A stretch of DNA of 64,000 nt from Gammaproteobacteria bacterium. Lineage in GTDB: Bacteria; Pseudomonadota; Gammaproteobacteria; QZLD01. Position 1 is the first letter of the stretch. Each line of letters begins with the position of its first letter. Of the stretch, positions 1-31,459 are shown one piece after another. A model generated the notes under the pieces. It was not told the DNA's origin, searched no databases, and saw only the letters and a program-made list of their open reading frames with translations. The stretch lies in assembly GCA_033852135.1 (NCBI GenBank), contig JAWSVB010000022.1, positions 101,936 through 165,935 on the forward strand. Direction: 5' to 3'. The translations under genes and the position numbers were made by a program.

Positions 1-2496
1 AAAATATTAGAGCCACAAAAAATTGGAGAGAATGGGTATTTTTTTATATTTAAAAGTGATGGGTATTTGTTGCTACACCCAGTGCTTGCAGGACAAAATG
101 GGAGTAAATTAATAAATCCTGTATCAGGTAACAGTATGTTAATTGATATGAAAAATGCAGCAATGTCTAATGAAAGACTATTGAAATATATATGGGATAG
201 GCCAGATGATAAGGGCAACTATCGTTATAAGAAAAAAGCTTTCCTAGCGTATTACCAGCCACTTGATTGGTATGTGGTGACCTCAGTTTACAATGATGAT
301 ATCGATTTATTAACATCAACTTTAGTTACAAGCGCTAAGGTAATTTTCTTTATTTCAATTTTAGTATCATTAATTCTTTCGCTACTTTTAATTAGAAGCA
401 TTACTAAACCCCTTAACGATTTAGTAGGAGCAATATCTGGTACTGACAATACAGGGGTTCCTACCGTTGAAATCCCAGAGGGAAACCTGGAAGAGATTAA
501 AGTTTTAAGTCGCACTATGAACTTAATGATATCAAGGATTAAAGAATATCAAATTAACTTTATAGATAGTGAATTAAAATTTAAGAGTTTGGTTGAATCT
601 GTAACAGATTTAATTTGGGAACTAGATAAAGATGGTAACTATGTATATATAAGCCCAAGAATTTATGATTTATTAGGCTATACACCTGAAGAAGTAATTG
701 GGAATAGCCCTATGATGTTTATGGATTCAGAAGAAACCCAAGCTATTTCTCCATTTTTAGAACAGATATTTGCAGATGGAAAAGGGTTTCAGAATTTAGA
801 AAGCAAATGTTTTCATAAGGATGGGACGCCGCGTACTATTGAAGTATCAGCTGCCCCATTTTTTAATGATAAAGGTGAATTACAGGGTTTAAGGGGGGTT
901 ACCCGCGATATAACAGAAAAAATAAAAGTTGCCAGAGAGCTACATGAAAGTGAGGAAAAGTTTAAGTTGCTTGCAGATCAAATGTTGCTCGGAATTCTAA
1001 TTGTTAAAGATGGGCTGTATAAATATTATAACGATGCGGTACTGGAGATATTTGGTACAACTAAACAACAAATGGACTCATTAGGCCCTTATGATCTTCA
1101 AACCTTAATTCACCCTGATGATAGGGCGTTTGTAATGGACCAGTTAAAGAAAAAGGAAAGAGGGCATAAAGACATAGTAATTAATTACGATTGGCGCCTT
1201 ATGTCTAGTAATGGCAAGACTAAATGGGTTGAGTCCTGGTCTAAAACTATAGATTTTGATGGAGAGACAGCTGATTTTGTACTTTTGTACGATATAACCG
1301 AGAGAAAAGACGCAGAGAATGAAGTTACACATTTAAGAAACTATCTCTCCAATGTGATTAACTCAATGCCATCGATATTAGTTGGAGTTGATGTTGAGGG
1401 TAAGATTACTCAGTGGAATAAAACAGCGGTAGACCGGACTAATTTGTGTGCTGAAAAAGTTATGGGTAAACATTTAAGCCAAGTATTGCCTAACTTAAAA
1501 CCAGTGTTTAAAAAGATAGAGCAGAGTATTAAAGCAAATAAATCAGTGCAGACAAAAATATCATATCAAACCAAAGAAAGTAACAGTGTGGTACAAGAGG
1601 TAACAGTATACCCGCTAGAAGCGGATGGAGTTGAAGGAGCCGTAATTCGTATTGACGATATTTCAGAAAAAGTACGTATGCAGGAGATGATGATACAAAG
1701 TGAAAAGATGCTCTCTATTGCCGGGCTTGCTGCAGGAATGGCTCATGAGATAAATAATCCTTTGGCAGGAATGATGCAAACTGCCAGTGTTATGTCTAAC
1801 CGCCTTATAAAAAAAGTAGATATGCCAGCAAATAATGATGCTGCAGAGCACGCAGGAACTACGGTTGATGCAATAAAGCAGTTTATGGATGAGCGTGATA
1901 TCCCTCGTATGATTAACGCAATAAACGAGTCGGGAAAAAGGGCTGCGATTATTGTTAATAATATGCTTAATTTTGCTCGCAAGGATGATGGTGGAGTAAT
2001 AGCTTCGCAAATAAATGAAATAATCCGTGTTTCGATTGAGCTGGCCGAAACAGATTACAACATGAAAAAACGTTATGATTTTAAGAAGGTATCTATAGAT
2101 ACTGAGTTCGGCCAAAATCTTCCTGATCTTTACTGTGACCAAGCTCAAATCCAGCAAGTGATTTTTAATCTTTTGCGTAATAGCGCTCAAGCAATGCAAG
2201 AAGCACAAATAGAATCACCACAAGTGCGCATTCGAACTAGCTTTAATAGTGACAACAACAAAGTGTTGATTGAACTATTTGATAATGGTCCAGGTATGGC
2301 AGAGGAGGTTCGTAAAAGAGTATTCGAACCTTTCTTTACCACTAAACCTACAGGTATCGGAACAGGGCTAGGTCTAAGCGTATCGTATTACATCATCGTC
2401 GAAGAGCATGGAGGGGAGATGTATTTAGACTCCGCACCAGGTGCTGGGACTAAATTCACAATAGCTTTACCGCTTGATAGAGGGGAAAGTTCATGA
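1..2496 (+). CDS. Sensor histidine kinase, 5'-truncated at window edge (Cache-like periplasmic end, TM, HAMP, 3x PAS, HisKA, HATPase)
   Basis: Frame 1 is open from nt 1 with no stop before the listed ORF at 67 ('KILEPQKIGENGYFFIFKSDGYLLLHP' is Cache-like), so the gene starts upstream of the window. TM segment 'VIFFISILVSLILSLLLI'; H-box 'SEKMLSIAGLAAGMAHEINNPLAGM'; G1/G2 ATPase motifs 'DNGPGM...GIGTGLGLS'. Confidence 0.85.
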   Translation, partial: KILEPQKIGENGYFFIFKSDGYLLLHPVLAGQNGSKLINPVSGNSMLIDMKNAAMSNERLLKYIWDRPDDKGNYRYKKKAFLAYYQPLDWYVVTSVYNDDIDLLTSTLVTSAKVIFFISILVSLILSLLLIRSITKPLNDLVGAISGTDNTGVPTVEIPEGNLEEIKVLSRTMNLMISRIKEYQINFIDSELKFKSLVESVTDLIWELDKDGNYVYISPRIYDLLGYTPEEVIGNSPMMFMDSEETQAISPFLEQIFADGKGFQNLESKCFHKDGTPRTIEVSAAPFFNDKGELQGLRGVTRDITEKIKVARELHESEEKFKLLADQMLLGILIVKDGLYKYYNDAVLEIFGTTKQQMDSLGPYDLQTLIHPDDRAFVMDQLKKKERGHKDIVINYDWRLMSSNGKTKWVESWSKTIDFDGETADFVLLYDITERKDAENEVTHLRNYLSNVINSMPSILVGVDVEGKITQWNKTAVDRTNLCAEKVMGKHLSQVLPNLKPVFKKIEQSIKANKSVQTKISYQTKESNSVVQEVTVYPLEADGVEGAVIRIDDISEKVRMQEMMIQSEKMLSIAGLAAGMAHEINNPLAGMMQTASVMSNRLIKKVDMPANNDAAEHAGTTVDAIKQFMDERDIPRMINAINESGKRAAIIVNNMLNFARKDDGGVIASQINEIIRVSIELAETDYNMKKRYDFKKVSIDTEFGQNLPDLYCDQAQIQQVIFNLLRNSAQAMQEAQIESPQVRIRTSFNSDNNKVLIELFDNGPGMAEEVRKRVFEPFFTTKPTGIGTGLGLSVSYYIIVEEHGGEMYLDSAPGAGTKFTIALPLDRGESS

Positions 2497-2511
2497 TGGG
2501 GCAGGCGCAGT

Positions 2512-2883
2512 ATGAATAATTCAATTTTAATTGTTGATGATGAACTTTTTATTCGGCAAAGTCTGAATGATTTTTTTAAAGATAGTCAATGGATTACATT
2601 CATAGCAAGCAGTGGAGAGGAAGCTTTAGAAATTCTTGAGCAGGAGAGCCCTTCTGCAGCAATTGTAGATATAAGAATGATGGGAATGAATGGTGATGAA
2701 TTTATTCGGCAAGCAAGAGATGTAAAACCGGAAATGTGTTTTGTGATATGTACAGGGTCACCTGAATATAAACCATCGTATGACCTTCTTCAGCTATCAC
2801 AAGTGTCAGAACAAATATATAGAAAACCGATTGATGATATGGAAAATCTGGAAAACCATATATCAAGTTTAATTAGTAATTAA
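2512..2883 (+). CDS. Single-domain response regulator (CheY-like receiver only)
   Basis: 'ILIVDDE' acidic pair, phospho-acceptor Asp in 'AIVDIRMMGMNG', 'CTGS' and 'YRKP' Lys. No output domain. Starts 16 nt after the HK1 stop. Confidence 0.85.
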   Translation: MNNSILIVDDELFIRQSLNDFFKDSQWITFIASSGEEALEILEQESPSAAIVDIRMMGMNGDEFIRQARDVKPEMCFVICTGSPEYKPSYDLLQLSQVSEQIYRKPIDDMENLENHISSLISN

Positions 2884-2910
2884 CATGAACAGTTATTAAG
2901 CCTTTTTATA

Positions 2911-2980
2911 GGTTAGATAGGTTAGATAGGTTAGATAGGTTGGATGGGTTAGATAGGTTGGATGGGTTAGATAGGTTAGA
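2911..2980. repeat. Tandem 9-bp repeat, about 7.8 copies (GGTTAGATA / GGTTGGATG variants)
   Basis: Direct reading gives GGTTAGATA x3, GGTTGGATG, GGTTAGATA, GGTTGGATG, GGTTAGATA, then a partial GGTTAGA. Lies between the receiver stop (2883) and the HK2 start (3003). Confidence 0.95.
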
Positions 2981-3002
2981 AGTTAAGTAGGTAAATTAAA
3001 AC

Positions 3003-5375
3003 ATGATTTTAAGGCGTAAAGTAAATATAAGGAACTCAGTAGCAACCAGGTTGTTAAAGGTTGTGTTCTGTTTTTATATTGCATTTGCTCTTTTAGTCAC
3101 TCTTTCCCACATGTTTATTGAATATAGCTATCAGAAAGGAGATGTAAATAAATCGTTAGTTGAATTCCAGCCAACTATCGAATCAACTCTTGCAATGAAT
3201 TTATGGCATATGGATGACCAATCACTTAAATCAACAATAGATAGCATCATTAAAATCCCTTTAATAGTTGGTATTAAGATAAAAGATGAATCAAAAAATA
3301 TAATTGCAGTTGATGGAGTAGTTTCTGAAGCTGATTTTTCTGGAAAGATTGAACAAGATATTGATTTTCTAGGGTTAAAGAGCAATATAAATGACTTACA
3401 AACTAATTCATATAATCTTGAAGTTTTCCAACATACATTTCCAATTTACTATAGATATAAAGGGCAACAAAGACTATTAGGTGAAGTAACACTCTTTTCT
3501 AACTCATCGGTTATTTTTGATAGAGTAAAAGTTCAGTTCTTACTTTTGGTAATAAATTCAGTACTTAAATCGTTAGCTCTGTGGGTGTTTTTCCTACTTA
3601 TATCAAACTATATATTGCGTCGCCCATTAGAATCAATTGCGGAGGCGGCTGAAAATATCAGTGTGGAAAACCTTAGTGATTTTAAAATTAAAATAAAGTC
3701 TGCAGGAAACGATGAATTAAGCGTTATAGAAAATTCATTTAATGAAATGATAAAAAAACTCTCAGATTCTATAAATAAACAGAAGGGGGCAGAACAAAAT
3801 TTAAGAGAAAATGAGATTAAATTTAGAACGCTTGTAGAGAATGTTCCCGGAGTAACTTATCGTTGTATTAATGATGAACCTTGGACAATGATATACCTAA
3901 GTGATGAGATAGAAAACTTATCAGGCTACCAACGTTCAGATTTTATAAATAATAATAAACGTACATTTGCATCAATAATTCATATTGAGGACACCACCTT
4001 CATTTCAAAAGCAGCAGAAAAAGCTATTAAGAATAGAACAACTTATTCATTTGAATATCGCATAGTTCGTGCAAATGGTGAAATTCGCTGGGTATATGAA
4101 AAGGGACAGCCAATATTTGATGAGAACGGTGAATTACAGTTTTTTGATGGTGTTATTATCGATATTACCGAAAGAAAACAAGCTGAAAGTGAGATAAGAA
4201 AACTACGAAAGTACCTTACAAACATTATTGACTCAATGCCTTCATCCTTAGTTGGTGTAGATGAAAGTCTAAAAATAACACAATGGAATAAAACCATTGA
4301 AGATACGACAGGGATTGCCGCAGTAGATGCATATGGAAAATCAATAGAAGATATTTTACCGCAAATGCAATCTGAGTTAGGGAAAATATCATGTAGCCTG
4401 CATACCCGAACAGTACAACGTAATCAGATAAAAAGAGGGGTAGATGAGACCGGCATATGTTATGAAGACGTCACCATTTATCCCTTAATTGCAAACGGGG
4501 TTAAGGGTGCAGTTATTCGCATAGATGACATTACCGAAAAAGTAAGGATGGAAGAGATACTGATTCAGAGTGAAAAAATGCTTTCAGTTGGAGGTTTAGC
4601 CGCAGGGATGGCTCATGAGATAAACAATCCATTAGCAGGCATGGTGCAAACAGTAAATGTGATGTCAAACAGGTTGATTGAAAAATCAGATATGCCAGCC
4701 AATATAGAAGCAGCTAAAGAAGCTGGAACAACCATAGAAGCAATCAATAAATTTATGCATATTCGTGATATTCCGCGGATGATTGCTACTATAAATGAAT
4801 CTGGCAAAAGAGCATCAGCCATAGTTAACAATATGCTCAGTTTTGCTCGCAAAGGGAGCAGTGAAAAAGCAACAGTGAACTACATAGAGTTAGTTGATAA
4901 TACGATTGATTTGGCAGTGACAGATTACAACCTTAAGAGTAACTATGACTTTAAACAAGTTGACGTTATTAGAGAATATAAAGATAAAACTGTATTTATT
5001 GAATGTGAACCATCACAGATTCAGCAAGTTATATTAAATCTAATTCGAAATGCTGCTCAAGCAATGCAGGATGCCAAAATACCATCTCCAAAATTGACCG
5101 TTCGTATCAGCCACGATAAAGACACAGCAATGGTTAAAACTGAGATAGAAGATAATGGACCAGGTATAGATAAAGAGACATTAAAACGGATCTTTGAACC
5201 TTTTTATACGACAAAACCAGTAGGTGTGGGAACAGGACTAGGGTTGAGCGTTTCATATTTCATCATAGCTGATAATCATAATGGAGAGATGCATGTTGAG
5301 TCTGTATCAGGCCAAGGTACGAGATTTACAATAAGTTTGCCTGTTAACAGCATAAAACAACAAATAGGTGTATAA
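3003..5375 (+). CDS. Sensor histidine kinase (2 TM periplasmic sensor, HAMP, PAS x2, HisKA, HATPase); paralog of HK1
   Basis: TM 'VVFCFYIAFALLVTLSHMFI' and 'LALWVFFLLISNYIL'. HAMP-like 'RRPLESIAEAAENIS'. H-box 'SEKMLSVGGLAAGMAHEINNPLAGMVQT'. 'DNGPGI...GVGTGLGLS'. Confidence 0.88.
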   Translation: MILRRKVNIRNSVATRLLKVVFCFYIAFALLVTLSHMFIEYSYQKGDVNKSLVEFQPTIESTLAMNLWHMDDQSLKSTIDSIIKIPLIVGIKIKDESKNIIAVDGVVSEADFSGKIEQDIDFLGLKSNINDLQTNSYNLEVFQHTFPIYYRYKGQQRLLGEVTLFSNSSVIFDRVKVQFLLLVINSVLKSLALWVFFLLISNYILRRPLESIAEAAENISVENLSDFKIKIKSAGNDELSVIENSFNEMIKKLSDSINKQKGAEQNLRENEIKFRTLVENVPGVTYRCINDEPWTMIYLSDEIENLSGYQRSDFINNNKRTFASIIHIEDTTFISKAAEKAIKNRTTYSFEYRIVRANGEIRWVYEKGQPIFDENGELQFFDGVIIDITERKQAESEIRKLRKYLTNIIDSMPSSLVGVDESLKITQWNKTIEDTTGIAAVDAYGKSIEDILPQMQSELGKISCSLHTRTVQRNQIKRGVDETGICYEDVTIYPLIANGVKGAVIRIDDITEKVRMEEILIQSEKMLSVGGLAAGMAHEINNPLAGMVQTVNVMSNRLIEKSDMPANIEAAKEAGTTIEAINKFMHIRDIPRMIATINESGKRASAIVNNMLSFARKGSSEKATVNYIELVDNTIDLAVTDYNLKSNYDFKQVDVIREYKDKTVFIECEPSQIQQVILNLIRNAAQAMQDAKIPSPKLTVRISHDKDTAMVKTEIEDNGPGIDKETLKRIFEPFYTTKPVGVGTGLGLSVSYFIIADNHNGEMHVESVSGQGTRFTISLPVNSIKQQIGV

Positions 5376-5408
5376 CATAAATAATGAGCATATATCTTTA
5401 AATATTCT

Positions 5409-5426
5409 ACAGTTATAACTGTAGGC
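5409..5426. promoter_or_regulatory. Perfect 18-bp palindrome CTACAGTTATAACTGTAG (candidate operator, or weak terminator without a T-run)
   Basis: Seen directly, 34 nt after the HK2 stop and about 135 nt upstream of the MEDS-like gene. Confidence 0.5.
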
Positions 5427-5563
5427 CTATTTGAGTTTTTAGTGTTGATGAATGGACAGGCACTAATGAAAGATTAACCGTTTAACTGTTGGTTAGTCGC
5501 TAGAGATACTGTGTATTTAATAGCAGCTGGTATGTGAACAGTTGCTATGTGGGAGGAGAGATT

Positions 5564-6184
5564 ATGAATGATAATCATCAAAAAATCTCACTGGGTTTTG
5601 TGAAAGAAAAAGTAGATGTAGGAACTCATCTATGTCTTGTATTTACCGATAAAAAGGAAAGAGTTGATTCTTTGTTAAAATTTATTTTAGCAGGGATGGC
5701 AGATAATGAGCGCACAGCATGTTTTTCTGAAGTTATAACTGAAGCAGAGATAACAGAGTTTTTTAAACTAAATAATATCTCCTACGATGAACGTAAATCC
5801 AAGCAAGCAATAACCTTTGGTCGTACTAGTGATGTCTATTTTCAAGACAATACTTTTGACCCAGAAAGAATGCTTGGAATCTTAGAACAATTCTATACAG
5901 ATGCGATAGAAATGGGGTTTAGCGCCTCAAGAGTAATTGGAGAGATGTCTCCGAAGATACAAGATGTCACTGGCGGTGAGAGATTGCTGGAATACGAATC
6001 AAGAGTTACTAAATTACTTGAAAAGAGCCCGATAACAGCTGTTTGCCAATATGATGCAAATCAATTTGATGGAGCGACGATTATGGATGTATTGAAAGTG
6101 CACCCAAAGATGATTGTTAATGGCGTAGTTGTTGAAAATCCATTTTTTATAAAACCCGATGAATTTCTTGAAAATATCAAGTAA
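5564..6184 (+). CDS. Small cytoplasmic sensory-domain protein, possibly MEDS family (DcmR-like)
   Basis: ATG at 5564 follows a strong RBS GGGAGGAGAG (the listed ORF starts at 5534 with no RBS). About 206 aa, no TM. The motifs 'HLCLVF' and 'AVCQYD' recall MEDS domains as I remember them. The protein sits directly upstream of the soluble kinase HK3. The family assignment is from memory and not verified. Confidence 0.4.
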   Translation: MNDNHQKISLGFVKEKVDVGTHLCLVFTDKKERVDSLLKFILAGMADNERTACFSEVITEAEITEFFKLNNISYDERKSKQAITFGRTSDVYFQDNTFDPERMLGILEQFYTDAIEMGFSASRVIGEMSPKIQDVTGGERLLEYESRVTKLLEKSPITAVCQYDANQFDGATIMDVLKVHPKMIVNGVVVENPFFIKPDEFLENIK

Positions 6185-6200
6185 AAGGCATAGTTAGCAT

Positions 6201-7898
6201 ATGAGCTTTGAGGATGGTCTTTCAGCTAAAGTAATTGGGCAGATTGCAATGATGCAAGGTGTTGTAGCACAGCTGCCAGATGAGGTTTCTGTACTTGGTT
6301 TTGTTGCTAAAGGGTTATCCGATATTCCAGGTGTGAAAAAGGTAGATTATGTCTTATTCAATGATGAAGAAACATCAGTATTAGAATATGAAACAGAAGA
6401 ACTAAGGCACATATTTCCAATTGAATATAAGCAATCAAAATACTCATCATTAATATTTCACCTATCTGATAGATCTAAATTTGACCTGTATGCCCCTTAT
6501 ATCGGTAATTTTACCAATGTACTAGCAGTACTGTTTGAGGAGAGGCGTCAGCGCAAATCTAATGAGGCATTGTTAGAAAATCTTGAAGAGTTGGTGGATG
6601 AAAGAACAAAAGAGTTAAAACAAGAGATTGCTGAACGTAAAAATGCAGAGGCTGAGTTAGAGAGAACAAAAGACTACATATCAAATGTAATCGACTCTAT
6701 GCCATCTGCTCTAATATCAGTAAATGAAAACCTTGAAGTAACGCAATGGAATTTAAAAGCGGAGGAGATTACAGGGGTGCCAGCCCCAGATGCTTTTGGG
6801 ATGAAGCTGGATGATGTTTTTCCGCGCATGGGAAAAGAGCTGGAATTAATATCAAACAGTATACAAAACAAAGAGATAAAATTTGAGCAGAAAACAGCAT
6901 ACGAAGCAGAATCAGGTGTAGGTTATGAAGATATAACAATTTACCCTTTAGTAGCGATTGGGATTCAAGGTGCTGTTTTACGTATAGATGATGTCACCAG
7001 TAAAGTGCGTATGGAAGAGATGCTGGTACAAAGTGAGAAGATGCTCTCAATCGGAGGGCTTGCCGCAGGAATGGCGCATGAAATTAACAATCCATTAGCT
7101 GGGATGATGCAAACAGCAAATGTAATGCAAAATCGTTTAGTCGATAATGTTGATATTCCAGCAAATAGAAGAGCGGCAGAGGAGATTGGTGTGGATCTTG
7201 AAGCGATTGTTGGCTTTATGTCGGCTAGAGGAATTCCGCGCATGATACACGCGATAAAAGAGTCTGGTGTAAGGGTAGCTTCAATAGTCAATAATATGCT
7301 GCATTTTGCACAACAATCAGATGATGAAATTAATACAAGTAAAATTGCAGATATAATCGAGAACACTATTGGTTTAGTTTCTACAGATTACAATCTAAAG
7401 AAACAGTACGATTTTAAAAAAATTAATATTATTCGGGAGTTTCAAGAAGATCTACCTGAAATTGAGTGCCACTCATCCAAAATTCAACAGGCCATGTTGA
7501 ATCTATTTAGCAATAGTGCACATGCACTGCAACAAGCTAAAATTGAAAATCCAAAAATAATAATAAGATTAGCGATAGATGAGAAGCAAGATGATAAAGA
7601 TGCAATGGTACGGGTTGAGATTGAAGATAATGGCCCAGGTATTTCCAGTAAGTTAATAGGTAGATTATTCGAACCATTTTATACAACAAAACCTACAGGT
7701 GAGGGAAAAGGGTTAGGTTTAAGTGTTGCATATTTCATAATTACTGAAACTCATAAAGGAAAGATGTGGGTAGAGTCTAATGAGGGGGTAGGCACTAAAT
7801 TCATAATATGTTTGCCAGTAAAGCAAAATGGTAGCGATATAAGTATCGATAGAAATGTAGATAAAAATTCTATAAATTCAATGGATAACAAAGGTTAA
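6201..7898 (+). CDS. Soluble (no TM) histidine kinase: N-terminal domain, coiled coil, PAS, HisKA, HATPase; paralog of HK1/2/4
   Basis: Coiled coil 'LEELVDERTKELKQEIAERKNAEAELERTKDY'. H-box 'SEKMLSIGGLAAGMAHEINNPLAGMMQT'. 'DNGPGIS...GEGKGLGLS'. Confidence 0.88.
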   Translation: MSFEDGLSAKVIGQIAMMQGVVAQLPDEVSVLGFVAKGLSDIPGVKKVDYVLFNDEETSVLEYETEELRHIFPIEYKQSKYSSLIFHLSDRSKFDLYAPYIGNFTNVLAVLFEERRQRKSNEALLENLEELVDERTKELKQEIAERKNAEAELERTKDYISNVIDSMPSALISVNENLEVTQWNLKAEEITGVPAPDAFGMKLDDVFPRMGKELELISNSIQNKEIKFEQKTAYEAESGVGYEDITIYPLVAIGIQGAVLRIDDVTSKVRMEEMLVQSEKMLSIGGLAAGMAHEINNPLAGMMQTANVMQNRLVDNVDIPANRRAAEEIGVDLEAIVGFMSARGIPRMIHAIKESGVRVASIVNNMLHFAQQSDDEINTSKIADIIENTIGLVSTDYNLKKQYDFKKINIIREFQEDLPEIECHSSKIQQAMLNLFSNSAHALQQAKIENPKIIIRLAIDEKQDDKDAMVRVEIEDNGPGISSKLIGRLFEPFYTTKPTGEGKGLGLSVAYFIITETHKGKMWVESNEGVGTKFIICLPVKQNGSDISIDRNVDKNSINSMDNKG

Positions 7899-7903
7899 GT
7901 TAT

Positions 7904-9058
7904 ATGATTAAACTATTTAAAATAATAGCTGTTTTATCATTGTTAGCATTAATCGTAATACTGAATATGCAATCTGCATCTACTGTAAAGATTGGATTAG
8001 TTGCAGATTTAAGTAGTAGAAAAGCCAACCTTGGTGATTCTGTAAGAAATGGGCTGATTCTCGCGATAAATGAGATAAATCAACAAGGCGGTATAAATGG
8101 TCACAAGGTTGAATTATTAGTTCGAGATGGTAAATCTAACGAAGCTATTACCCAGCAACAAGCAACTAATTTAGTTGATAACTGTGTAAATCTAATAGTT
8201 GGACCTGTGCACAGTGCAATGGCAAATTCAGTAATAGAAGCGACTAAAGAAGCAGGTATATTGGTTATAAGTCCAACAGTTTCAACTGATAACCTCTCCG
8301 AAATTGATGATAACTTTTTCCGCATAAATACCAAATCATCCATTCAAGGTAATGACCTTGCAAGAGCATCAAAACTTAGGGGCGATAAGAAAGTATTATT
8401 GGTAGTGGACCAAGATAATAGTGAGTATACCGGGTCAGTAGCTCATGGTTTTAGAGAGAGAGCAAAACTACTGGATTTAGAAGTCATCGGTGAAATAGCT
8501 TTTACTAAGGAGCACGATACTACTAAATTGGTAGATAAAATCATCCAATACAAGGCTGATGCATTAGTCTTTATAACTAATGGCAAAGATGCAGCAAAAA
8601 TTATCCAGCTATATAACAAAGTTAGCAAACTACCAAACTTATATGGTGATATGTGGGCGAAGTGGAGCAATGTTAAAGAGTTTGGAGGTAAAGCTGTAAA
8701 TGGGATGGTTTTAGTTGGCATTAATAAGAATAAACAGAGCCAAGATAAAGAGGTGCAATTTGCCTCATCCTATAAACAGCTTTTTGGTTCAGAGTATACG
8801 ATACCAGCGGTTTATGCGTATGAGGCTGTACAATTATATGCTTTAGGTGCACAAAATGCCTCTAGCTTGGATAGCGATAAAATTAAACAATATATTTTGA
8901 AAATAGAGCAAATAGATGGAGTGGTGGATAACTATAAACTTGATATGTATGGTGATGCAATTCGAGAGTTTTCATATTTCCAAATTAAAGATAATAGATA
9001 TGAAAAGATAAATTTACCCAAAGAGTTACCTATAAAAATAGATAGTGTTAAAGAGTAG
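7904..9058 (+). CDS. Periplasmic binding protein, LivK/Leu-Ile-Val-binding family (Peripla_BP_6-like), signal peptide
   Basis: Signal peptide 'MIKLFKIIAVLSLLALIVILN'. 'VKIGLVADLSSRK...GINGHKVELLVRDGKSN' is typical of type I PBPs. No ABC permease or ATPase genes nearby. Confidence 0.75.
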   Translation: MIKLFKIIAVLSLLALIVILNMQSASTVKIGLVADLSSRKANLGDSVRNGLILAINEINQQGGINGHKVELLVRDGKSNEAITQQQATNLVDNCVNLIVGPVHSAMANSVIEATKEAGILVISPTVSTDNLSEIDDNFFRINTKSSIQGNDLARASKLRGDKKVLLVVDQDNSEYTGSVAHGFRERAKLLDLEVIGEIAFTKEHDTTKLVDKIIQYKADALVFITNGKDAAKIIQLYNKVSKLPNLYGDMWAKWSNVKEFGGKAVNGMVLVGINKNKQSQDKEVQFASSYKQLFGSEYTIPAVYAYEAVQLYALGAQNASSLDSDKIKQYILKIEQIDGVVDNYKLDMYGDAIREFSYFQIKDNRYEKINLPKELPIKIDSVKE

Positions 9059-10222
9059 ATGGTTAAAAATATGAATAATTATAAAACAGGAACAAAAAGA
9101 TTAATCAGAGCTGGAGCAATAATTGTTTTGCTAGCATTGGTTACTTGGCTATTACTATCCCTACTAATTTTAAAAGAGCCGGTAAAAATAGGTTTTTTAG
9201 CAGATTTAAGTACCAGAAAATCGCAGCTAGGTGTTGTGGCAAGAAACGGTGTGATTATGGCCGTAGATGAATTAAATGACAGAGGTGGAATAAACGGTAG
9301 AAAAGTTGAGCTTATTATTAGAGATATAAAATCAAGTAAAGATGAGGCAAAGCTTCAAACGTTAAAATTAATTGAAGATGGGGTAGATGTGATAATCGGA
9401 GGGTTTGTTAGCTCAATGGCCGCTCCTGTTCTTGAAGCTACAAAGAATAGTAATATCTTGCTAATAAGTCCTACAGTTGCAGCTGATAGTTTGTCAGGAA
9501 TTGATGATAATTTTATTCGGATTACCCCACAAGCATCAAAACATGGTAGTTCGCTTGCTGAGGCAGCTGGGTATATGGGAATTAAAAAAGTTACTTTGAT
9601 TCGCGATATCAAAAATGAAGAGTACTCAGGGGCTGTAGTTGATGGGTTTAAGAAAAAATGTGAAGAACAATCTATTCAAGTTATTGGTGATCTAGAGTTT
9701 GAAACCAAGCAAGACTTCCCTCAACTTGTTGAGCAATTGTCTAAGCTGCAGTCAGATGCTTTGGTATTTATCACCAGTGGAATCGATGCCGGTGCGATTA
9801 TTCAGCAATATGCTAGAAATAATAATGTTCCACATCTATTTGGCAGCATGTGGACAAAAGTTACAAAAGTAAATGAGTATGGTGGAAAAGCAGTAAATGG
9901 AATGTTTCTGGTAGATGTTTTTGCGAATAAAAATCCAGAAGTTAAAGAAGTAGAGTTTAATAAATCTTTCAAAGAGCGTTTTGGAATGGGATCAAATATG
10001 CCATCAAGGTATACATATGAATCTGTAAAGCTATTTGCTCAAGCTGCTGAGAAAGCAAATAGTGTAAAAACTGAAAAAGTAAAAACTGAAATTATTAATA
10101 TGAACCCTGTTGAGGGGATAACAGATAACTATCAGATTGATAAATATGGTGATGTTATTCGTGAACTATCCCTTTATCAGATTAAAAATCACCAGTACGA
10201 GTTGACTAATAAAACGAACTAA
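9059..10222 (+). CDS. Second LivK-type periplasmic binding protein (tandem paralog), N-terminal membrane anchor or signal
   Basis: 'VKIGFLADLSTRKSQLGVVARNGVIMAVDELNDRGGINGRKVELIIRDIKSS' is parallel to the upstream PBP. Hydrophobic N-terminus 'AIIVLLALVTWLLLSLLIL'. Confidence 0.75.
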   Translation: MVKNMNNYKTGTKRLIRAGAIIVLLALVTWLLLSLLILKEPVKIGFLADLSTRKSQLGVVARNGVIMAVDELNDRGGINGRKVELIIRDIKSSKDEAKLQTLKLIEDGVDVIIGGFVSSMAAPVLEATKNSNILLISPTVAADSLSGIDDNFIRITPQASKHGSSLAEAAGYMGIKKVTLIRDIKNEEYSGAVVDGFKKKCEEQSIQVIGDLEFETKQDFPQLVEQLSKLQSDALVFITSGIDAGAIIQQYARNNNVPHLFGSMWTKVTKVNEYGGKAVNGMFLVDVFANKNPEVKEVEFNKSFKERFGMGSNMPSRYTYESVKLFAQAAEKANSVKTEKVKTEIINMNPVEGITDNYQIDKYGDVIRELSLYQIKNHQYELTNKTN

Positions 10223-10342
10223 TACAAATAGCTAATTAATAAAAAGTGCAATAAATAGGATATATGTAAATGCAGAAAAAAATCAGTAAAGAAATGAACC
10301 AACAATACAAAAAGGTTGCGTTTAAATAGCAGGTTTTATGTA

Positions 10343-12601
10343 ATGGTTAATTTCTTTCATAACATAAGCATTCAAAGGTTTTTCAAGATTTATCTCTTGA
10401 TTGCTGTGTTATTACCGTTATTGGTTCTTGGCTTGGTAGGATTGACAATATCATCAAGCTTATTAAGGCATGAGATATTAAACGCAGATCATAGGCAGGT
10501 ACACCTTGCTGAATATGCTATCGAGCAGCACCTCCAAAGACCACTTGAGGATCTTCAGGTTATATCAAGCCTAATTCATAATATTTCAAAATCACAGCCA
10601 TCAAGAATCCAGAGAATTATCGAAAAAACTCAAGATGCGCATAGATATTTTGCAGCTATTCAAGTTGTTGATATTGATGGTCGAGTAATTGCTATATCCC
10701 CATTAAATAAAGATTTGATGGGTATTGATGTATCAGGACACAGATACTTCAATAAAATTAAAAGTTTAAATACTCCGTATTGGGGGGCATCATTTATATC
10801 GGAGCAGTTAGAGTTACCACTCGCATCACTAAGTATAAAAACAGATTATGGCTTTATTATCACAGGTTTTCTCAGATTAGATGATATTAGTGAAATCGGT
10901 AAAGGTAGGAGACAAGAAGAAACTAGTAATAATGATATTGATTCACGATTGTTGTTTATCACAGACCAGAATGGGGTATTTATTGCACACCCAGACAAAC
11001 AAAAAGTTATGATTCGTGAATATGACCAACAATATGCAAAAAGTATTAAGCAGTGGAATAGTGATATTTTAGTTAGTGAGGCTGAATATAATGAGCGTGA
11101 ATTCTTAGTAAATACGGTTATTATGCCAGAGACAAAATGGAAAATATCACTATATACTCCACTTGAAAATATCACTTCTCCAATTATAAAAACGGCAGTT
11201 ATATTACTGCTTTTAACTCTAGCAGTTACCGTATTAGCAATTATTGGCGGAGCAAAACTCAGTAGTAAAATATCTGGCTCTTTCAGTGAGTTGCTTAAGT
11301 CAGTAGATGCTATCGGCAAAGGGAAGTATGAAGTACCAATATCTCAAAGTAATTATAGAGAGTTTAACCAGCTTGCTGATTCATTTGAACAGATGGCACA
11401 AGAGGTAAAAGCAAGGGAGAAAGACCTCAAGGAAGCAGAGAGCTATATCTCCAATATTATTAATTCCATGCCATCAATATTGGTAAGTGTGAACAGAGAT
11501 CTAATAATTACGCAGTGGAACATGACTGCAAAAGATAAAACAGGGGTTGAGGCAGAAGATGCAAAAGGGAAAAATCTAGTGGAGCTTTTGCCTAATTTGC
11601 AGTCAGAAATCAGTAAAATAGAGAGCAGCATAGAAAGTCGGCAAGTTAAATATAGCAGGAAAAAGCCACTTTATTCTGAGAGCAATGTAAGCTACGAGGA
11701 TATAACAATTTTTCCACTAATAGCTAACGGAGTACAAGGAGCTGTTATTCGTGTTGATGATGTTACGGATAAAGTTCGTCTTGAAGAGATGCTGGTACAA
11801 AATGAGAAAATGTTATCCATTGGTGGGTTGGCAGCTGGTATGGCGCATGAAATCAATAATCCGCTAGCAGGGATGATGCAAACAGCAGATGTTATTCAGA
11901 ATCGTTTAGTAAATAAAATTGATTTGCCAGCAAATAAAAAAGCAGCAGAAGAAGCAGGTATTACTATTGAAGGGGTTTCTAAATTTATACATGCCAGAGA
12001 TATTCCTCGTATGATTGAAACAATAAAAGAGTCTGGTAAACGTGCGGCTACTATCGTTAATAATATGCTCACATTTGCACGTAAGGCAGACCACAGTAAA
12101 TCAAAGGTAAATGTAGAGCGTTTATTAGAAGACACATTAGATCTAGCAATAACCGATTACAATTTAGAAAAAGAGCATGATTTTAAACAGATAAAAATCA
12201 TAAAAGAGTTTGAATCTAGCTTGCCATTATTGCTATGTGAAGAAACTAAAATTCAGCAGGTGATTTTAAATTTACTGCTCAACAGTGCCCAAGCAATATT
12301 TGGCAGCAGTATAAAAGCACCTGTAATTCATATCCGTACAAGTCTGTCTAAAGATAGCAAAATTATTAATATCGAGATTGAAGATAATGGCCCGGGGATG
12401 GATAACGAAACAAGTAAAAGAATATTTGAACCGTTTTTTACAACAAAAGATGTTGGTCAAGGGACAGGTTTAGGTTTAAGTGTTTCATATTTTATTGTTA
12501 CAGAGAATCATGGTGGTGAGATGAGTGTTACATCAAAGACAGGGGAAGGCACTAAGTTTTTAATATCCCTGCCAGTAGAAGGAAACAAAAATGAATACTA
12601 G
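10343..12601 (+). CDS. Sensor histidine kinase with ~250-aa Cache-like periplasmic domain, TM, HAMP, PAS, HisKA, HATPase (paralog HK4)
   Basis: ATG at 10343 (the listed ORF uses an in-frame TTG at 10316). TM1 'IYLLIAVLLPLLVLGLVGLTI', TM2 'AVILLLLTLAVTVLAIIGG'. H-box 'NEKMLSIGGLAAGMAHEINNPLAGMMQT'. 'DNGPGM...GQGTGLGLS'. Confidence 0.85.
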   Translation: MVNFFHNISIQRFFKIYLLIAVLLPLLVLGLVGLTISSSLLRHEILNADHRQVHLAEYAIEQHLQRPLEDLQVISSLIHNISKSQPSRIQRIIEKTQDAHRYFAAIQVVDIDGRVIAISPLNKDLMGIDVSGHRYFNKIKSLNTPYWGASFISEQLELPLASLSIKTDYGFIITGFLRLDDISEIGKGRRQEETSNNDIDSRLLFITDQNGVFIAHPDKQKVMIREYDQQYAKSIKQWNSDILVSEAEYNEREFLVNTVIMPETKWKISLYTPLENITSPIIKTAVILLLLTLAVTVLAIIGGAKLSSKISGSFSELLKSVDAIGKGKYEVPISQSNYREFNQLADSFEQMAQEVKAREKDLKEAESYISNIINSMPSILVSVNRDLIITQWNMTAKDKTGVEAEDAKGKNLVELLPNLQSEISKIESSIESRQVKYSRKKPLYSESNVSYEDITIFPLIANGVQGAVIRVDDVTDKVRLEEMLVQNEKMLSIGGLAAGMAHEINNPLAGMMQTADVIQNRLVNKIDLPANKKAAEEAGITIEGVSKFIHARDIPRMIETIKESGKRAATIVNNMLTFARKADHSKSKVNVERLLEDTLDLAITDYNLEKEHDFKQIKIIKEFESSLPLLLCEETKIQQVILNLLLNSAQAIFGSSIKAPVIHIRTSLSKDSKIINIEIEDNGPGMDNETSKRIFEPFFTTKDVGQGTGLGLSVSYFIVTENHGGEMSVTSKTGEGTKFLISLPVEGNKNEY

Positions 12602-12968
12602 TAATAAAAGCGTTTTGATTTTAGATGATGAACCGTTTGTAAGGGATAGTCTTGTAGATTATTTTGAAGATTGCCTTTGGACCGTATTTTGTTCTGGGCA
12701 GGAGGATGAGGCGCTAGATATTATAAAAAACTATAAAATAGATTGTGCCATAGTGGATATTCGAATGGCAGGTATTGGTGGGGACCAATTTATTCGTGAA
12801 GCGAATAAACTGCCCAATAAAATTGGATTTGTAGTTTGTACCGGTTCTCCTGAGTATGAAATTCCAGCTGATTTAGCCGCATTAGAAAATGTTTCAAATA
12901 CTATTTTTAGTAAACCTGTGACAGAGCTAAATAAATTAGAGCAAGAATTACTGAAGTTAGCAGGATAA
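12591..12968 (+). CDS. Single-domain response regulator (receiver only), translationally coupled to HK4
   Basis: ATG overlaps the HK4 stop (ATGAATACTAG). 'VLILDDEP', 'AIVDIRMAGIGG', 'CTGS', 'FSKP'. Paralog of the receiver at 2512. Confidence 0.85.
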   Translation: MNTSNKSVLILDDEPFVRDSLVDYFEDCLWTVFCSGQEDEALDIIKNYKIDCAIVDIRMAGIGGDQFIREANKLPNKIGFVVCTGSPEYEIPADLAALENVSNTIFSKPVTELNKLEQELLKLAG

Positions 12969-13044
12969 ATGTCAGTTTTTCTAATAAACTTAAATATATA
13001 TGATTATTACTATTCATAAAAAGTATATCGAGTAACGGTGGGTC

Positions 13045-14352
13045 ATGAGTGATACTCAAATTACAGTGCTAGCAATTGATGATGATGAATACATCAGGCA
13101 AAGTTATATCGATTGTTTGGAAGACTATGAATACAAAGTATTTATAGCTGAAAATGGCAGAGTTGGTTTAGAGCTTTTTGAACAGCACATTGATGAAATT
13201 GATATCGTAATTGTTGACCTAAGAATGCCAGAGGTTGATGGCTTTCAAGTAGTTGCACATGTGAAAAAAAGTAAGCCAGAGCTACCAATAATTGTAGTTT
13301 CCGGTAATGGAGTAATAAGTGATGCAGTTGAGGCTCTTCATCAAGGAGCGTGGGATTACTTGCTAAAACCGATAGAAGATTTTTCTGTATTGATTCACTC
13401 TGTAAATAGCTGCTTGGATAAGGCGCGTCTTATTAATGAGAATGCAGAGTATCAACTCCATCTGGAAAGTATGGTTGCAGATAGAACTAATGAATTATTT
13501 GAAGCAAATATTGAGCTGAAAAGGCATAAAAGTCACCTGCAAGAGCTGGTTGAAGAGAGAACATCAAAATTAAATGAATCATTAGAAAATCTAAATAATA
13601 CAAAAGATTATTTAATCCAATCTGAAAAAATGGCAGCCCTAGGTGGTTTGGTTGCTGGTGTTGCGCATGAGATTAATACTCCAGTTGGGATTGGTGTAAC
13701 GGCTGCCTCACACCTCGAAGGTGAGACCAGAAAGTTTACTAAAGCCTATGAAAACGGCGAACTAACCAGAAAGGCGTTAGATAGCTATGTGAAAATAGTA
13801 AATGAAAGTTGTGGAATGATTCTGTCCAATATGAATCGTGCTGCAGACTTAATCCATAGCTTCAAGCAAGTTGCAGTTGACCAATCTAGCCAAGAAAATC
13901 GTGAGTTTAATGTTAAAAAGTATTTGCATGAGATCTTTGCAAGCCTGAATCCAAAGTTTAAGAATACCAGTTTAACTATCAATGTAGAGTGCGCAGATGA
14001 CCTGACCATTAACTCCTACCCTGGGACTATGTCTCAGATTATCACCAACCTTGCCTTAAACTCCCTTATCCATGGCTTTGAAGATAAAGAAAATGGAACT
14101 ATAGATTTAAAAGTTGTGAAAGAAAATGGAAATATTAAGATAAATTATTCAGATACCGGCCACGGAATATCAGAAGAAAATTTAACTAAAATATTCGACC
14201 CATTTTTCACAACTAAGAGGGGTTATGGGGGGAGTGGACTTGGCTTACATATAGTTTTCAATTTGGTCACCCAAACCCTTGGTGGAAGTATTGAATGCAA
14301 TTCGAAAGAGGGTGAAGGGGCTGAGTTCATTATTGAATTTCCATACTCTTAG
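13045..14352 (+). CDS. Hybrid response regulator-histidine kinase (N-terminal receiver, coiled coil, HisKA of a different subfamily, HATPase)
   Basis: Receiver 'VLAIDDDEYIRQ...IVIVDLRMPEVDG...VVSGNG...LLKP'. H-box 'SEKMAALGGLVAGVAHEINTPVGIG'. 'DTGHGI...GGSGLGLHIV'. Confidence 0.85.
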   Translation: MSDTQITVLAIDDDEYIRQSYIDCLEDYEYKVFIAENGRVGLELFEQHIDEIDIVIVDLRMPEVDGFQVVAHVKKSKPELPIIVVSGNGVISDAVEALHQGAWDYLLKPIEDFSVLIHSVNSCLDKARLINENAEYQLHLESMVADRTNELFEANIELKRHKSHLQELVEERTSKLNESLENLNNTKDYLIQSEKMAALGGLVAGVAHEINTPVGIGVTAASHLEGETRKFTKAYENGELTRKALDSYVKIVNESCGMILSNMNRAADLIHSFKQVAVDQSSQENREFNVKKYLHEIFASLNPKFKNTSLTINVECADDLTINSYPGTMSQIITNLALNSLIHGFEDKENGTIDLKVVKENGNIKINYSDTGHGISEENLTKIFDPFFTTKRGYGGSGLGLHIVFNLVTQTLGGSIECNSKEGEGAEFIIEFPYS

Positions 14353-14442
14353 TACCCGCCAGAACATATAAAAAAATCAACCTTGTATTCTCGATTTAAA
14401 TAGCTAATTTTAAGGTTAAAACTACTAAGTAGAGTAAATATT

Positions 14443-15165
14443 GTGTGGAGTCAGACAAATTTAGGTAGATACATAATAGATCTTGAATCCGAAAAGATTA
14501 ATCAAATTATTAATCGAGTTCCTGGTGTTAACATACTACAGCTGGGTACATTAAGAGGGACAAAGTGGCTAAATCTAAATCGTAAATTTCAAAGCTATAT
14601 TCTAGATACCCCCGCTCGATGTGGCTCAGATTGTAATGTCTTTGGGGAGTTAGAATCATTACCTTTCTCTTCTGAAAGCATGGATGTGGTTATTCTCAGG
14701 CACACACTTGAAGCAACAACAAACCCGCAAACTGTTCTGCATGAGGCAGAACGAATACTATCTCCAGATGGTTATTTAGTTATTTTAGGTTTTAACCCTT
14801 ATAGTTTTTTTGGGGCGCTACGCTTTGCAGAAAAGTATACAGAAACCGGGGAGTGGGAAGGGGAATCACTCTCAATAGGACGGATTAAAGATTGGTTTGC
14901 AGTTCTAGGTTTGGATGTAACAGAAGAGGAAAAGGTAAAACTTAGCCATAGAGTGATAAAGGAAGAATATGGGAAAAAATTTGAATTTCTAGGAGAGCTG
15001 GCAGATTACAGCCTGCATATTCAATCAGGAGTTTATATCCTGATGGCAAGAAAGAGGATAATCCCCTTATCCCGTGTAAAAAATGGCTGGCGTGAAAAAG
15101 GTAATAGGGTAAGTTCACCAATTCAGGCAAGCCCAAAAGTAAACCGAAAACTATTTAAGGAATAA
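14443..15165 (+). CDS. Class I SAM-dependent methyltransferase (conserved neighbour of rnhA in many gammaproteobacteria)
   Basis: GTG start. 'DTPARCGSD...MDVVILRHTLEATTNPQTVLHEAERILSPDGYLVILGFNP' is a Methyltransf_11-like core. Position immediately upstream of rnhA. Confidence 0.65.
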   Translation: MWSQTNLGRYIIDLESEKINQIINRVPGVNILQLGTLRGTKWLNLNRKFQSYILDTPARCGSDCNVFGELESLPFSSESMDVVILRHTLEATTNPQTVLHEAERILSPDGYLVILGFNPYSFFGALRFAEKYTETGEWEGESLSIGRIKDWFAVLGLDVTEEEKVKLSHRVIKEEYGKKFEFLGELADYSLHIQSGVYILMARKRIIPLSRVKNGWREKGNRVSSPIQASPKVNRKLFKE

Positions 15166-15387
15166 TTTTTCTTAACCCTTAGCTCGCCAATAGAACTTAA
15201 AAATTTAAGCTTTTAAATAGGAGTTATCTTTCTGTATAAGGGTTGTATAGCGATGTTTTTAGGTGCTTTGCAATATTACCTATAGTCAGTATGGATCGTG
15301 TTTAATCACAGATAACATTGCTTGCATGATGGAATTCATTACAATGACTATGCTTGAAAATTTAGTTTTCTGTGGAATGGTAAATAA

Positions 15388-15831
15388 ATGACAAATACTG
15401 TAGAAATTTTCGCTGATGGTGCATGTAGAGGTAACCCAGGTCCTGGTGGCTGGGGTGCATTATTACGTTTTAATGATAATGAAAAAGAGCTCTATGGAGC
15501 AGAAGCAGATACAACCAATAACCGTATGGAATTAACTGCTGTAATCAAGTCGCTAGAGTCCTTAACGAGGCCTTGTGAGATAGTTGTTACCTTAGATTCA
15601 AAATATGTTCTGGATGGAATACAAAGCTGGATAGAGAACTGGAAGAAGCGTGGTTGGAAAACAGCGGCAAAGAAACCAGTAAAAAATGAAGATCTATGGA
15701 GGCAGCTTGATGCTCTAAAACAGGAGCATAAAATCACCTGGAACTGGGTAAAAGGTCATAGTGGACATGATGAAAATGAGAGGGCTGACCAACTAGCTAA
15801 TAAAGGGATAGACGAGATGCTAGGCTCGTAA
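15388..15831 (+). CDS. rnhA: Ribonuclease HI
   Basis: '[22 protein letters not shown]...[17 protein letters not shown]...[14 protein letters not shown]' are canonical RNase H motifs. Confidence 0.95.
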
Positions 15832-15915
15832 ATAGTATTGCATCCAAATTTCGACAAGTTAACAAGCAGCAGTTAGAATATTCGTAATAAATTAAAATAG
15901 GCAAACTCAGTAACC

Positions 15916-31240: not shown

Positions 31241-31459
31241 ATCGGTCCAGGTTGAAGGCAGTAATAGGCGCCAATCATCTCATTTTTAGGAATTAAATCC
31301 AATTAAGCCCTATAAATAGTTCTTAATAACTAAAAAAACAGGACTCAGGTAACATTACAGCAAAAGATTTACAGTAATTAATGGTAACTAAACTATTATT
31401 TTAGTAATTAGTATAAATGTAATTTATCTATTGATGGTTGGTAGTTGTCGGAATGTTTA

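Follow-up and report, generated by a model that had tools for sequence, protein, structure and literature searches.

The 64-kb window considered here, by which we mean the whole 64,000-nucleotide stretch of contig JAWSVB010000022.1 (Gammaproteobacteria bacterium, assembly GCA_033852135.1), begins with an array of histidine kinases (HKs). Four of these, HK1 to HK4, lie co-oriented on one strand within 12.6 kb, and they are accompanied by two stand-alone receivers, REC_A and REC_B, and by a receiver-fronted kinase, HK5. We find that HK1–HK4 are paralogs of long standing from a conserved family, and that their array is stable. As an explanation of the whole locus, we consider it fairly probable that these old paralogs form a multi-sensor array that converges on shared receivers. 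The convergence of HK1–HK4 on a shared receiver pool is predicted from sequence, and taken by itself we would give it roughly even chances.

The four kinases have in common a C-terminal core of about 400 amino acids, composed of PAS, DHp and CA domains. An initial annotation of this DNA had proposed that one PAS-DHp-CA cassette was pasted behind four different sensor modules, and this proposal is supported by the four plus-strand open reading frames (ORFs) with a homologous core. In HK1–HK4, a conserved PAS domain (SMPS...TQWN...DD(I/V)T) lies directly N-terminal to DHp. The H-box AHEINNPL and the motifs NLxxN, DNGPG, FEPF(F/Y)TTK and G(T/K)GLGLS are found in all four, and the H, N, G1, F and G2 boxes are intact. 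Pfam matches to HisKA (E = 1e-9 to 4e-8) and HATPase_c (E = 1e-23 to 6e-26) are present in each. Judged by such sequence criteria, HK1–HK4 are HisKA-type (class I) sensor histidine kinases. A motif scan in all six frames found no further copies of the cassette in the window.

The cores are 51–57% identical to each other in amino acids and 58–62% in DNA. The DHp domain, taken here from 22 residues before to 80 residues after the phospho-accepting histidine (H-22 to H+80), has 69–75% identity to that of HK1. Within DHp helix 1, positions H-7 to H+9 are fully identical in all four kinases, and the peptide GLAAGMAHEINNPLAGM is likewise identical in all. The DHp helices had been described as near-identical; this is true of helix 1 alone, as variation is found in the hairpin insert and in helix 2. 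Similarly, the peptides that had been listed as identical are found in most copies, but HK2 has SMPSSLVGVD, and HK3 has VTQWN, RGIPRMI, ESGVRV and IVNNMLHFAQ. The statement that the N-termini share nothing is correct in that the overall sensor architectures differ, but some domain types and PAS homology are common. The N-termini of HK1 and HK2 have PAS homology (26% identity, E = 5e-13), HAMP occurs in both HK2 and HK4, and Cache-type domains occur in both HK1 and HK4. The span that had been assigned to the four cassettes (3900..12100) was too narrow, as it omits HK1 (1..2496) and cuts HK4, which ends at 12601.

The age of the paralogs can be judged from silent sites. Synonymous differences between the cores have reached saturation (proportion of synonymous differences, pS, 0.68–0.77), the longest exact DNA word common to the cores is 11–20 nucleotides, and no DNA tracts of more than 90% identity were found between them. 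Copies of the identical 17-residue peptide (51 nucleotides) differ at 9–12 positions, all of them silent, which implies that the identity of the peptide is held by selection and does not reflect youth or gene conversion. We saw neither tracts of low synonymous divergence between the cores nor close relatives without the paralogs.

Comparison with other genomes agrees with this. The closest genome in the species-representative collection belongs to an uncultured gammaproteobacterium (L001), whose HK3 is 86% identical, and the array is gene for gene the same in L001 and in a third relative, L129. A more distant relative, L023, has the order HK1-HK2-HK4-REC-HK5, without REC_A, the MEDS-domain protein, HK3 or the periplasmic binding proteins. 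In a tree of 167 cores built by neighbour joining, each of HK1, HK2 and HK4 clusters with its orthologs from L001 and L023 (bootstrap 93–100%), and the HK3 group has a bootstrap of 100%. Between genomes, orthology extends over the whole length of the sensor regions, with 36–52% identity to L023, and each fusion of sensor and core is therefore older than the split of these lineages.

HK1–HK4 are ancient paralogs within a subfamily of HisKA-type sensor kinases that is large, widespread and unnamed. A profile built from the four cores matched more than 7600 clusters (at 90% identity) with E ≤ 1e-20, in a search limited to 8000 candidates. The best 120 of these matches, from Desulfobacterales, Spirochaetes, Gammaproteobacteria and others, have 49–58% identity over at least 95% of the core; the HK1–HK4 cores resemble family members from other phyla as closely as they resemble each other. 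Among the same 120 matches, the N-terminal domains include HAMP, dCache, sCache, PocR, CHASE, GAF, REC and others. We defined the subfamily by a 103-residue profile of DHp and its insert, including the D-x-P-A-N...R-x-I-P-R-M insert, with HK1–HK4 as the sequences that define the profile. An exhaustive HMMER search with this profile found 938 clusters (at 50% identity) with E ≤ 1e-30 and 3339 with E ≤ 1e-10, with matches from Desulfobacterota, Gammaproteobacteria, Spirochaetes and Chloroflexi. Among the 150 matches listed, all align essentially end to end, and DHp starts anywhere from residue 41 to residue 1636. Since many N-termini are found on one core throughout the family, domain shuffling is real, but it is ancient and family-wide. 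The core is kept at 50–60% identity across phyla by purifying selection, and has been joined over time to many sensor modules.

No NCBIfam model matched the cores above its own cutoff; the best was AtoS, at 194–209 bits where the cutoff is 646. In a sequence search of the PDB, the best match to the core was ThkA (3a0r, E = 3e-29), and a Foldseek search against the PDB yielded generic PAS-kinase structures (YF1, WalK, ThkA, ZraS and HK853). For the features that characterize the family, namely a frozen docking face, a hairpin insert and conserved receiver and receiver-kinase partners, we found no description in NCBIfam, in the PDB sequence and fold searches or in literature searches that were not aimed at the family itself.

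The insert of the family comprises about 24 residues that form two helices between DHp alpha-1 and alpha-2. The DHp hairpin is 24 residues longer than that of HK853 (query residue 205 aligns with chain position 60, i.e., F291). In an AlphaFold2 model of the HK3 core (m38be23006f0b), which has a mean pLDDT (predicted local distance difference test) of 82, the insert helices occupy residues 177–186 and 190–200 (pLDDT >90), between alpha-1 (123–172) and alpha-2 (202–228). The phmmer alignments to ThkA (3a0r) and to PDB 5idj both break at the insert.

We compared the receiver-docking face of the kinases with positions at which the specificity of HK853 has been rewired, which we took from the title of PDB 4jas (A268, A271, T275, V294 and D297). 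By the offset in the PDB sequence alignment, these positions, which are H+8, +11, +15, +34 and +37 in HK853, map to H+8, +11, +15, +58 and +61 here. Conservation across the family was evaluated in 146 members outside this clade. HK1–HK4 all have A at H+7 (87% of the 146), G at H+8 (97%), Q at H+11 (100%), T at H+12 (83%), V at H+15 (95%), M at H+55 (88%), E at H+61 (55%) and S at H+62 (81%). At H+58, HK1 and HK3 have A, HK2 and HK4 have T, and the 146 members are variable. The 37 kinases from receiver-anchored loci (see below) likewise show little or no variation at H+7, 8, 11, 12, 15, 55 and 62. H+55 and H+62 correspond to the coevolving HK853 positions 291 and 298, and H+7, +8, +11 and +12 are reportedly also the specificity positions of EnvZ and PhoQ (Skerker 2008; Capra 2010; Podgornaia and Laub 2015). 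Variation is concentrated at H+14 and H+17, in the insert (H+21 to H+51), and at helix-2 positions 57, 58, 60, 64 and 68. Across orthologs, only a few positions (H-19, H-9, H-8, H+66, H+78 and H+79) are fixed within each paralog yet differ between paralogs, and H+13, H+58 and H+60 are nearly paralog-fixed.

These results bear on the prediction, made in the initial annotation, that the paralogs cross-phosphorylate. The prediction gains support, in that HK1–HK4 differ at a single canonical specificity position, H+58, but the cause would be a surface that is frozen across the family, rather than recency. The accompanying idea that a lack of insulation between paralogs is unusual does not fit, as it appears to be a family-wide property and many-to-one wiring is a known design.

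REC_A and REC_B belong to a family of small receivers that is marked by FV(I/V)C(T/S)GSPEY and by an alpha-1 helix of the form x(V/I)RxS(F/L)xD(Y/F)FED. At the specificity positions of RR468 (V13, L14, I17 and N21, taken from the title of PDB 4jav), REC_A has F-I-S-F and REC_B has F-V-S-Y. In 10 genome loci, drawn from Gammaproteobacteria, Desulfobacula and Anaerolineales, the gene right after a family kinase encodes a small receiver, and the stop codon of the first usually overlaps the start codon of the second. In a receiver-anchored scan of metagenomes, the small receiver follows a histidine kinase in 53 of 71 loci, and 40 of these 53 kinases have strong family scores. Moreover, in 32 of the 70 metagenome loci with downstream sequence, a receiver-fronted protein comes next; these proteins are REC-HisKA-CA kinases, REC-GAF-PAS-kinases or REC-PAS-GAF-HD-GYP enzymes. 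The alpha-1 pattern R-x-S-(F/L/Y)-x-D-x-x-E-D is common to both receiver classes. We also attempted to size the small-receiver family by a word-indexed search with REC_B, which found 18 proteins only and was dropped as too insensitive for a 125-residue protein.

Not every family kinase is linked to a receiver. HK1 and HK4 have a stand-alone receiver directly downstream, as do about 20% of the sampled family members; HK2 and HK3 do not, and a downstream receiver gene is missing for about two thirds of the family kinases sampled. The ratio of kinases to small receivers to receiver-fronted kinases is 4:2:1 in the window and 3:1:1 in L023.

HK5 is a candidate second-tier kinase. Its full-length orthologs lie directly downstream of family kinases in L001 and L023. 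They also directly follow a family kinase in six Oceanospirillaceae/Pseudomonadales loci (L028, L025, L018, L021, L030 and L032; 41–44% identity). In L028 (8189..14472), the one such locus scanned, the family kinase and the HK5 ortholog are followed by a 531-residue REC-TPR protein, and ORFs of similar size follow in L025 and L018, which suggests a three-tier module without a small receiver. We rejected the idea that HK5 itself shares the family docking surface: its helix 1 (AHEINTPVGIGVTAASHL) has V, G, V, T and S in positions H+7, 8, 11, 12 and 15. Given these differences at canonical specificity positions (H-box at 13666), HK5 should address a different receiver than HK1–HK4.

A REC-DUF3369-HD-GYP regulator is encoded just upstream of HK1 in three relatives (L001 1372..2946, L023 1498..3117 and L129 1..1077), and the array therefore probably starts to the left of window position 1. 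The alpha-1 helix of this regulator's receiver (DDDEIIHAVTKMVLAD) does not match the pattern of the small-receiver family. HD-GYP proteins recur in other neighbourhoods of the family. By Pfam, no Hpt or Spo0B-type phosphotransferase was found among the scanned genes of window positions 1..16600 or the examined genes of L001, L023 and L129, and the place downstream of the collector is taken in the array by the receiver-fronted kinase.

We infer from sequence and gene order the pairs of kinases and receivers between which phosphate would pass, as well as the final output. In the proposed scheme, each kinase would read a different signal, and HK1–HK4 would add phosphate to, or remove phosphate from, a common pool consisting of REC_A, REC_B and the receiver of HK5. 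A shared pool appears most likely given the identical docking residues of the kinases and the similar alpha-1 helices of these three receivers. Convergence is further suggested by the absence of an own receiver for HK2 and HK3, by the 3:1:1 ratio in L023 and by the tight linkage of the genes. HK5 would then relay the summed signal, possibly via an HD-GYP phosphodiesterase of cyclic di-GMP (c-di-GMP). The motif H-E-x-x-N, which in HisKA kinases is tied to phosphatase activity (bifunctional kinase/phosphatases), is found in all four kinases, so unstimulated members could drain the receiver pool, as in the Lux system. Input helpers are probably the MEDS-domain protein for HK3 and the two periplasmic binding proteins for HK4.

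It is important to consider several points that weigh against such convergence. Docking positions that are invariant across a whole family do not, taken alone, distinguish between the receivers that a given kinase might use. Other parts of the kinase might determine specificity, and candidates are the insert (H+21 to H+51) and positions H+57, 58, 60, 64 and 68 of helix 2. The residues at H+58 (A/T/A/T in HK1–HK4) and H+60 (N/N/K/K) form a combination that is unique to each paralog and largely fixed in its orthologs, which is the pattern expected of insulated paralogs; four distinct combinations would arise by chance alone with a probability of about 0.09. The retention of REC_A and REC_B as distinct genes, at 44% identity, hints at non-redundant roles, and the partners of HK2 and HK3 could be receivers with genes in another part of the genome. 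In addition, the family statistics rest on top-scoring matches, which favour conserved members. Finally, the four paralog groups are monophyletic together with a bootstrap of only 20% in the neighbour-joining tree, and the paralogs may have been either duplicated in place or assembled.

In classical paralogs such as EnvZ and PhoQ, the receiver-docking face diverges, and each paralog is thereby insulated. A bolder version of the hypothesis is that in the present family this face is frozen, both between phyla and between the paralogs of one cell, that all family members in a cell are hard-wired to the same few stand-alone receivers, receiver-gated second kinases or HD-GYP enzymes, and that the insert, rather than the docking face, sets the preference for dimer or partner. 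We offer this version tentatively, since we think it is more probably wrong than right. If it were true, the family would amount to a plug-in sensor bus, to which new sensors are added by fusion to a constant PAS-DHp-CA module, and the array of four kinases would be a compact, genetically tractable example.

The locus can also be explained in other ways. If one cassette had been copied behind four sensors not long ago, by recent shuffling or duplication, then long identical peptides, four copies in 12.6 kb on one strand and different N-termini would all be expected. However, the saturated synonymous sites, the lack of long identical DNA tracts and the 9–12 silent differences in the 17-mer contradict this, as does the fact that each paralog with its sensor has orthologs in L001, L129 and L023. 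The same peptides are, moreover, invariant in family members from other phyla. We consequently find recent copying extremely improbable, and the word "recent" in the initial annotation cannot be maintained. Indeed, the identity among the paralogs (51–57%) is effectively that of ordinary family-level conservation, an outcome that the annotation itself had set against its hypothesis; family members from Desulfobacterales and Spirochaetes have 50–58% identity across 95% or more of the core. It had also predicted heterodimerisation, i.e., mixed DHp dimers with direct mutual regulation, as in RetS and GacS. From H-16 to H+20, DHp helix 1 hardly differs between the paralogs, and regulation of one kinase by another does exist in known multikinase networks (PMC8498467). 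On the other hand, HK3 is soluble, whereas the other three kinases are membrane proteins whose transmembrane (TM), HAMP and PAS stalks differ. The N-terminal half of helix 1 has paralog-specific residues (H-19, H-9 and H-8), and the hairpin region is variable. In EnvZ and RstB, the specificity of homodimers is reportedly set by residues close to the hairpin. Mixed dimers therefore seem improbable to us, although less so than recent copying.

A more serious competitor is a set of insulated parallel pathways, in which HK1 would act with REC_A, HK4 with REC_B and HK5, and HK2 and HK3 with receivers encoded elsewhere. The conserved surface would then reflect structural or catalytic constraint, and specificity would come from the insert, from H+58 and H+60, or from co-localisation or translational coupling. 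Several observations fit: residues at H+58, H+60, H+13 and H+66 are paralog-specific and kept across orthologs, the insert is variable, REC_A and REC_B are retained as separate orthogroups, and the overlap of kinase and receiver genes suggests one-to-one coupling. H+58 corresponds to the HK853 specificity position V294 and, in 37 pairs of neighbouring kinases and receivers, it has some clade-level association with the first specificity position of the response regulator (for example, R pairs with A); these pairs are few and confounded by phylogeny, and we use their covariation only qualitatively. Nevertheless, both A and T at H+58 adjoin receivers with F at the matching position, and REC_A and REC_B hardly differ in the four canonical residues. 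Insulation also fits poorly with L023, where three kinases in a row are accompanied by one small receiver, and with the absence of an own receiver for HK2 and HK3 in the array. We judge insulated pathways to be possible but unlikely.

Among known systems, the closest in sequence is ThkA/TrrA of Thermotoga maritima (PDB 3a0r). ThkA also has a PAS domain directly before DHp-CA and, like HK1 and HK4 but unlike HK2 and HK3, a stand-alone receiver gene after the kinase; it was crystallised with the stand-alone receiver TrrA, which the small receivers match weakly (E = 4e-5). However, its identity to the cores is about 25%, it does not have the hairpin insert (where the phmmer alignment breaks), it stands alone where HK1–HK4 form an array, and it is not known to work with a receiver-fronted second kinase. 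PAS kinases of the AtoS/NtrB type (NCBIfam PRK11360 and NF008468; JGI 'NtrC family sensor kinase') have the best NCBIfam similarity and an HE(I/V)xNPL H-box. They differ in that the scores (194–209 bits) are far below 646, in that no sigma-54 activator partner is found at the array, and in that the DHp insert is specific to the family of HK1–HK4.

The wiring that we propose has parallels elsewhere. Many-to-one designs are known from KinA-E, which act on Spo0F in B. subtilis, and from LuxN, LuxQ and CqsS, which act on LuxU in Vibrio (PMC12471899). There, too, kinases with different sensors and apparently one docking surface outnumber the receivers, and a stand-alone receiver serves as collector; the nearest relatives of REC_B with a solved structure include Spo0F. 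Unlike these systems, the array has no detected Hpt or Spo0B-type phosphotransferase and has a receiver-fronted kinase or HD-GYP regulator downstream. HK1–HK4 are also clustered in one locus, and the shared transfer is in this case predicted from sequence. In CheA3, CheS3 and CheY3 of Rhodospirillum centenum, a kinase phosphorylates the receiver of a second kinase (PMC3868531). This circuit likewise includes a receiver-fronted histidine kinase as target and a single-domain receiver, but its upstream kinase is of the CheA type and fed by chemoreceptors, and homology to the array is limited to generic domains. Given that many-to-one phosphorylation and phosphorylation of one kinase's receiver by another are already established (PMC12471899, PMC3868531), convergence in the array would follow an established network design.

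If HK1–HK4 do converge on shared receivers, the array would be a clean system for studying how several signals are summed at the level of phosphotransfer. The inputs would be periplasmic ligands, detected by Cache and CHASE-like domains and by binding proteins, together with a cue from the cytoplasm, detected via the MEDS-domain protein. The locus would also be suited to asking what the hairpin insert of DHp contributes to specificity. Recent shuffling, with fortuitous cross-talk between young paralogs, would have offered a snapshot of the birth of a pathway, but this reading is wrong. What remains is more modest: a conserved array in which four sensors are combined with two stand-alone receivers and a second kinase. 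The four kinases come from a very common family that shows no diversification of the residues for partner recognition. A general caution is that identical H-box peptides are no evidence of recency.

Coordinates of the array and of selected features within its kinases (His codon, codon of the phospho-accepting histidine; DHp, H-22 to H+80)
Feature	Position in window	Strand	Description	Remarks
HK1	1..2496	+	Cache tail, TM segment, HAMP, two PAS, then PAS-DHp-CA core from 1297	His codon 1744; N-terminus beyond window edge
REC_A	2512..2883	+	123-residue stand-alone receiver, 'CTGSPEY' small-REC family	Pfam Response_reg, family alignments
HK2	3003..5375	+	CHASE5-like periplasmic region, HAMP, PAS, core from 4167	His codon 4614
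MEDS-domain protein	5534..6184	+	MEDS	Pfam MEDS, E = 7e-38
HK3	6201..7898	+	Soluble; 143-residue N-terminal region, then core from 6630	His codon 7077
Periplasmic binding protein 1	7904..9058	+	Peripla_BP_6, LivK/urea-type	Pfam, E = 1e-47
Periplasmic binding protein 2	9059..10222	+	Peripla_BP_6, directly upstream of HK4	Pfam, E = 1e-50
HK4	10316..12601	+	dCache_1 and HAMP, then core from 11399	His codon 11846
REC_B	12591..12968	+	125-residue stand-alone receiver, same family as REC_A	
HK5	13045..14352	+	REC, coiled coil, H-box AHEINTP, CA; receiver-fronted histidine kinase	Pfam
HK1 DHp	1678..1986	+	Two-helix hairpin insert at about 1807..1899	
HK2 DHp	4548..4856	+	Insert at about 4677..4769	
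HK3 DHp	7011..7319	+	Insert at about 7140..7232	
HK4 DHp	11780..12088	+	Insert at about 11909..12001	
H+58 codons	1918, 4788, 7251, 12020	+	HK1, HK2, HK3, HK4	
H+60 codons	1924, 4794, 7257, 12026	+	HK1, HK2, HK3, HK4	

The gene order of the array has several further features. A full-length ortholog of HK1 is available in L001 (3071..6388; 1105 residues) and has dCache_2/sCache_2, HAMP and PAS domains. REC_A starts 16 nucleotides past the HK1 stop codon, and the start of REC_B overlaps the HK4 stop by 11 nucleotides. The MEDS gene ends 16 nucleotides upstream of HK3, and the pair is kept in L001, L129 and L130; the MEDS-domain protein is a likely input partner of HK3, whose 143-residue N-terminal region has no Pfam match. 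The start of the MEDS gene is uncertain, as an ATG lies about 30 nucleotides downstream of the GTG at 5534. HK4 probably starts at ATG 10343, the listed TTG at 10316 being too early, because alignments with orthologs begin at residue 10 of the listed ORF. The two Peripla_BP_6 proteins are paralogs (45–47% identity). In a Desulfobacula locus (L035, 7007..11272), two Peripla_BP_6 genes lie directly upstream of a family kinase. A pair of binding-protein genes ahead of a kinase gene, as at window 7904..12601, is thus found in a second phylum as well.

In a scan of window positions 1..15500, the counts of promoters and terminators were at or below shuffled expectation, and no terminator-like sites were found in the plus-strand intergenic gaps. 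HK5 is followed by a methyltransferase gene (by Pfam) and by ORFs at 15388..15831 and 15916..16629, which we read as rnhA and dnaQ from their translations alone.

Some other genes in the window are also of note. The genes recC (35960..39193) and recB (39174..42686) are followed by a 1177-residue hybrid histidine kinase at 42975..46508 (HAMP, two PAS, HisKA, CA and REC), which stands where recD would be expected, although no search for recD was made. A 388-residue ORF on the minus strand (24112..25278) has weak HD-GYP-like similarity (34% over about 100 residues to the HD-GYP domain from L001) and an ortholog in L023 (19177..20337). A REC-GGDEF-EAL protein, whose receiver gave no match to the profile of the small receivers, is encoded at 31445..33292. 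This protein and the HD-GYP regulator that precedes the array point jointly to c-di-GMP signalling in the region.

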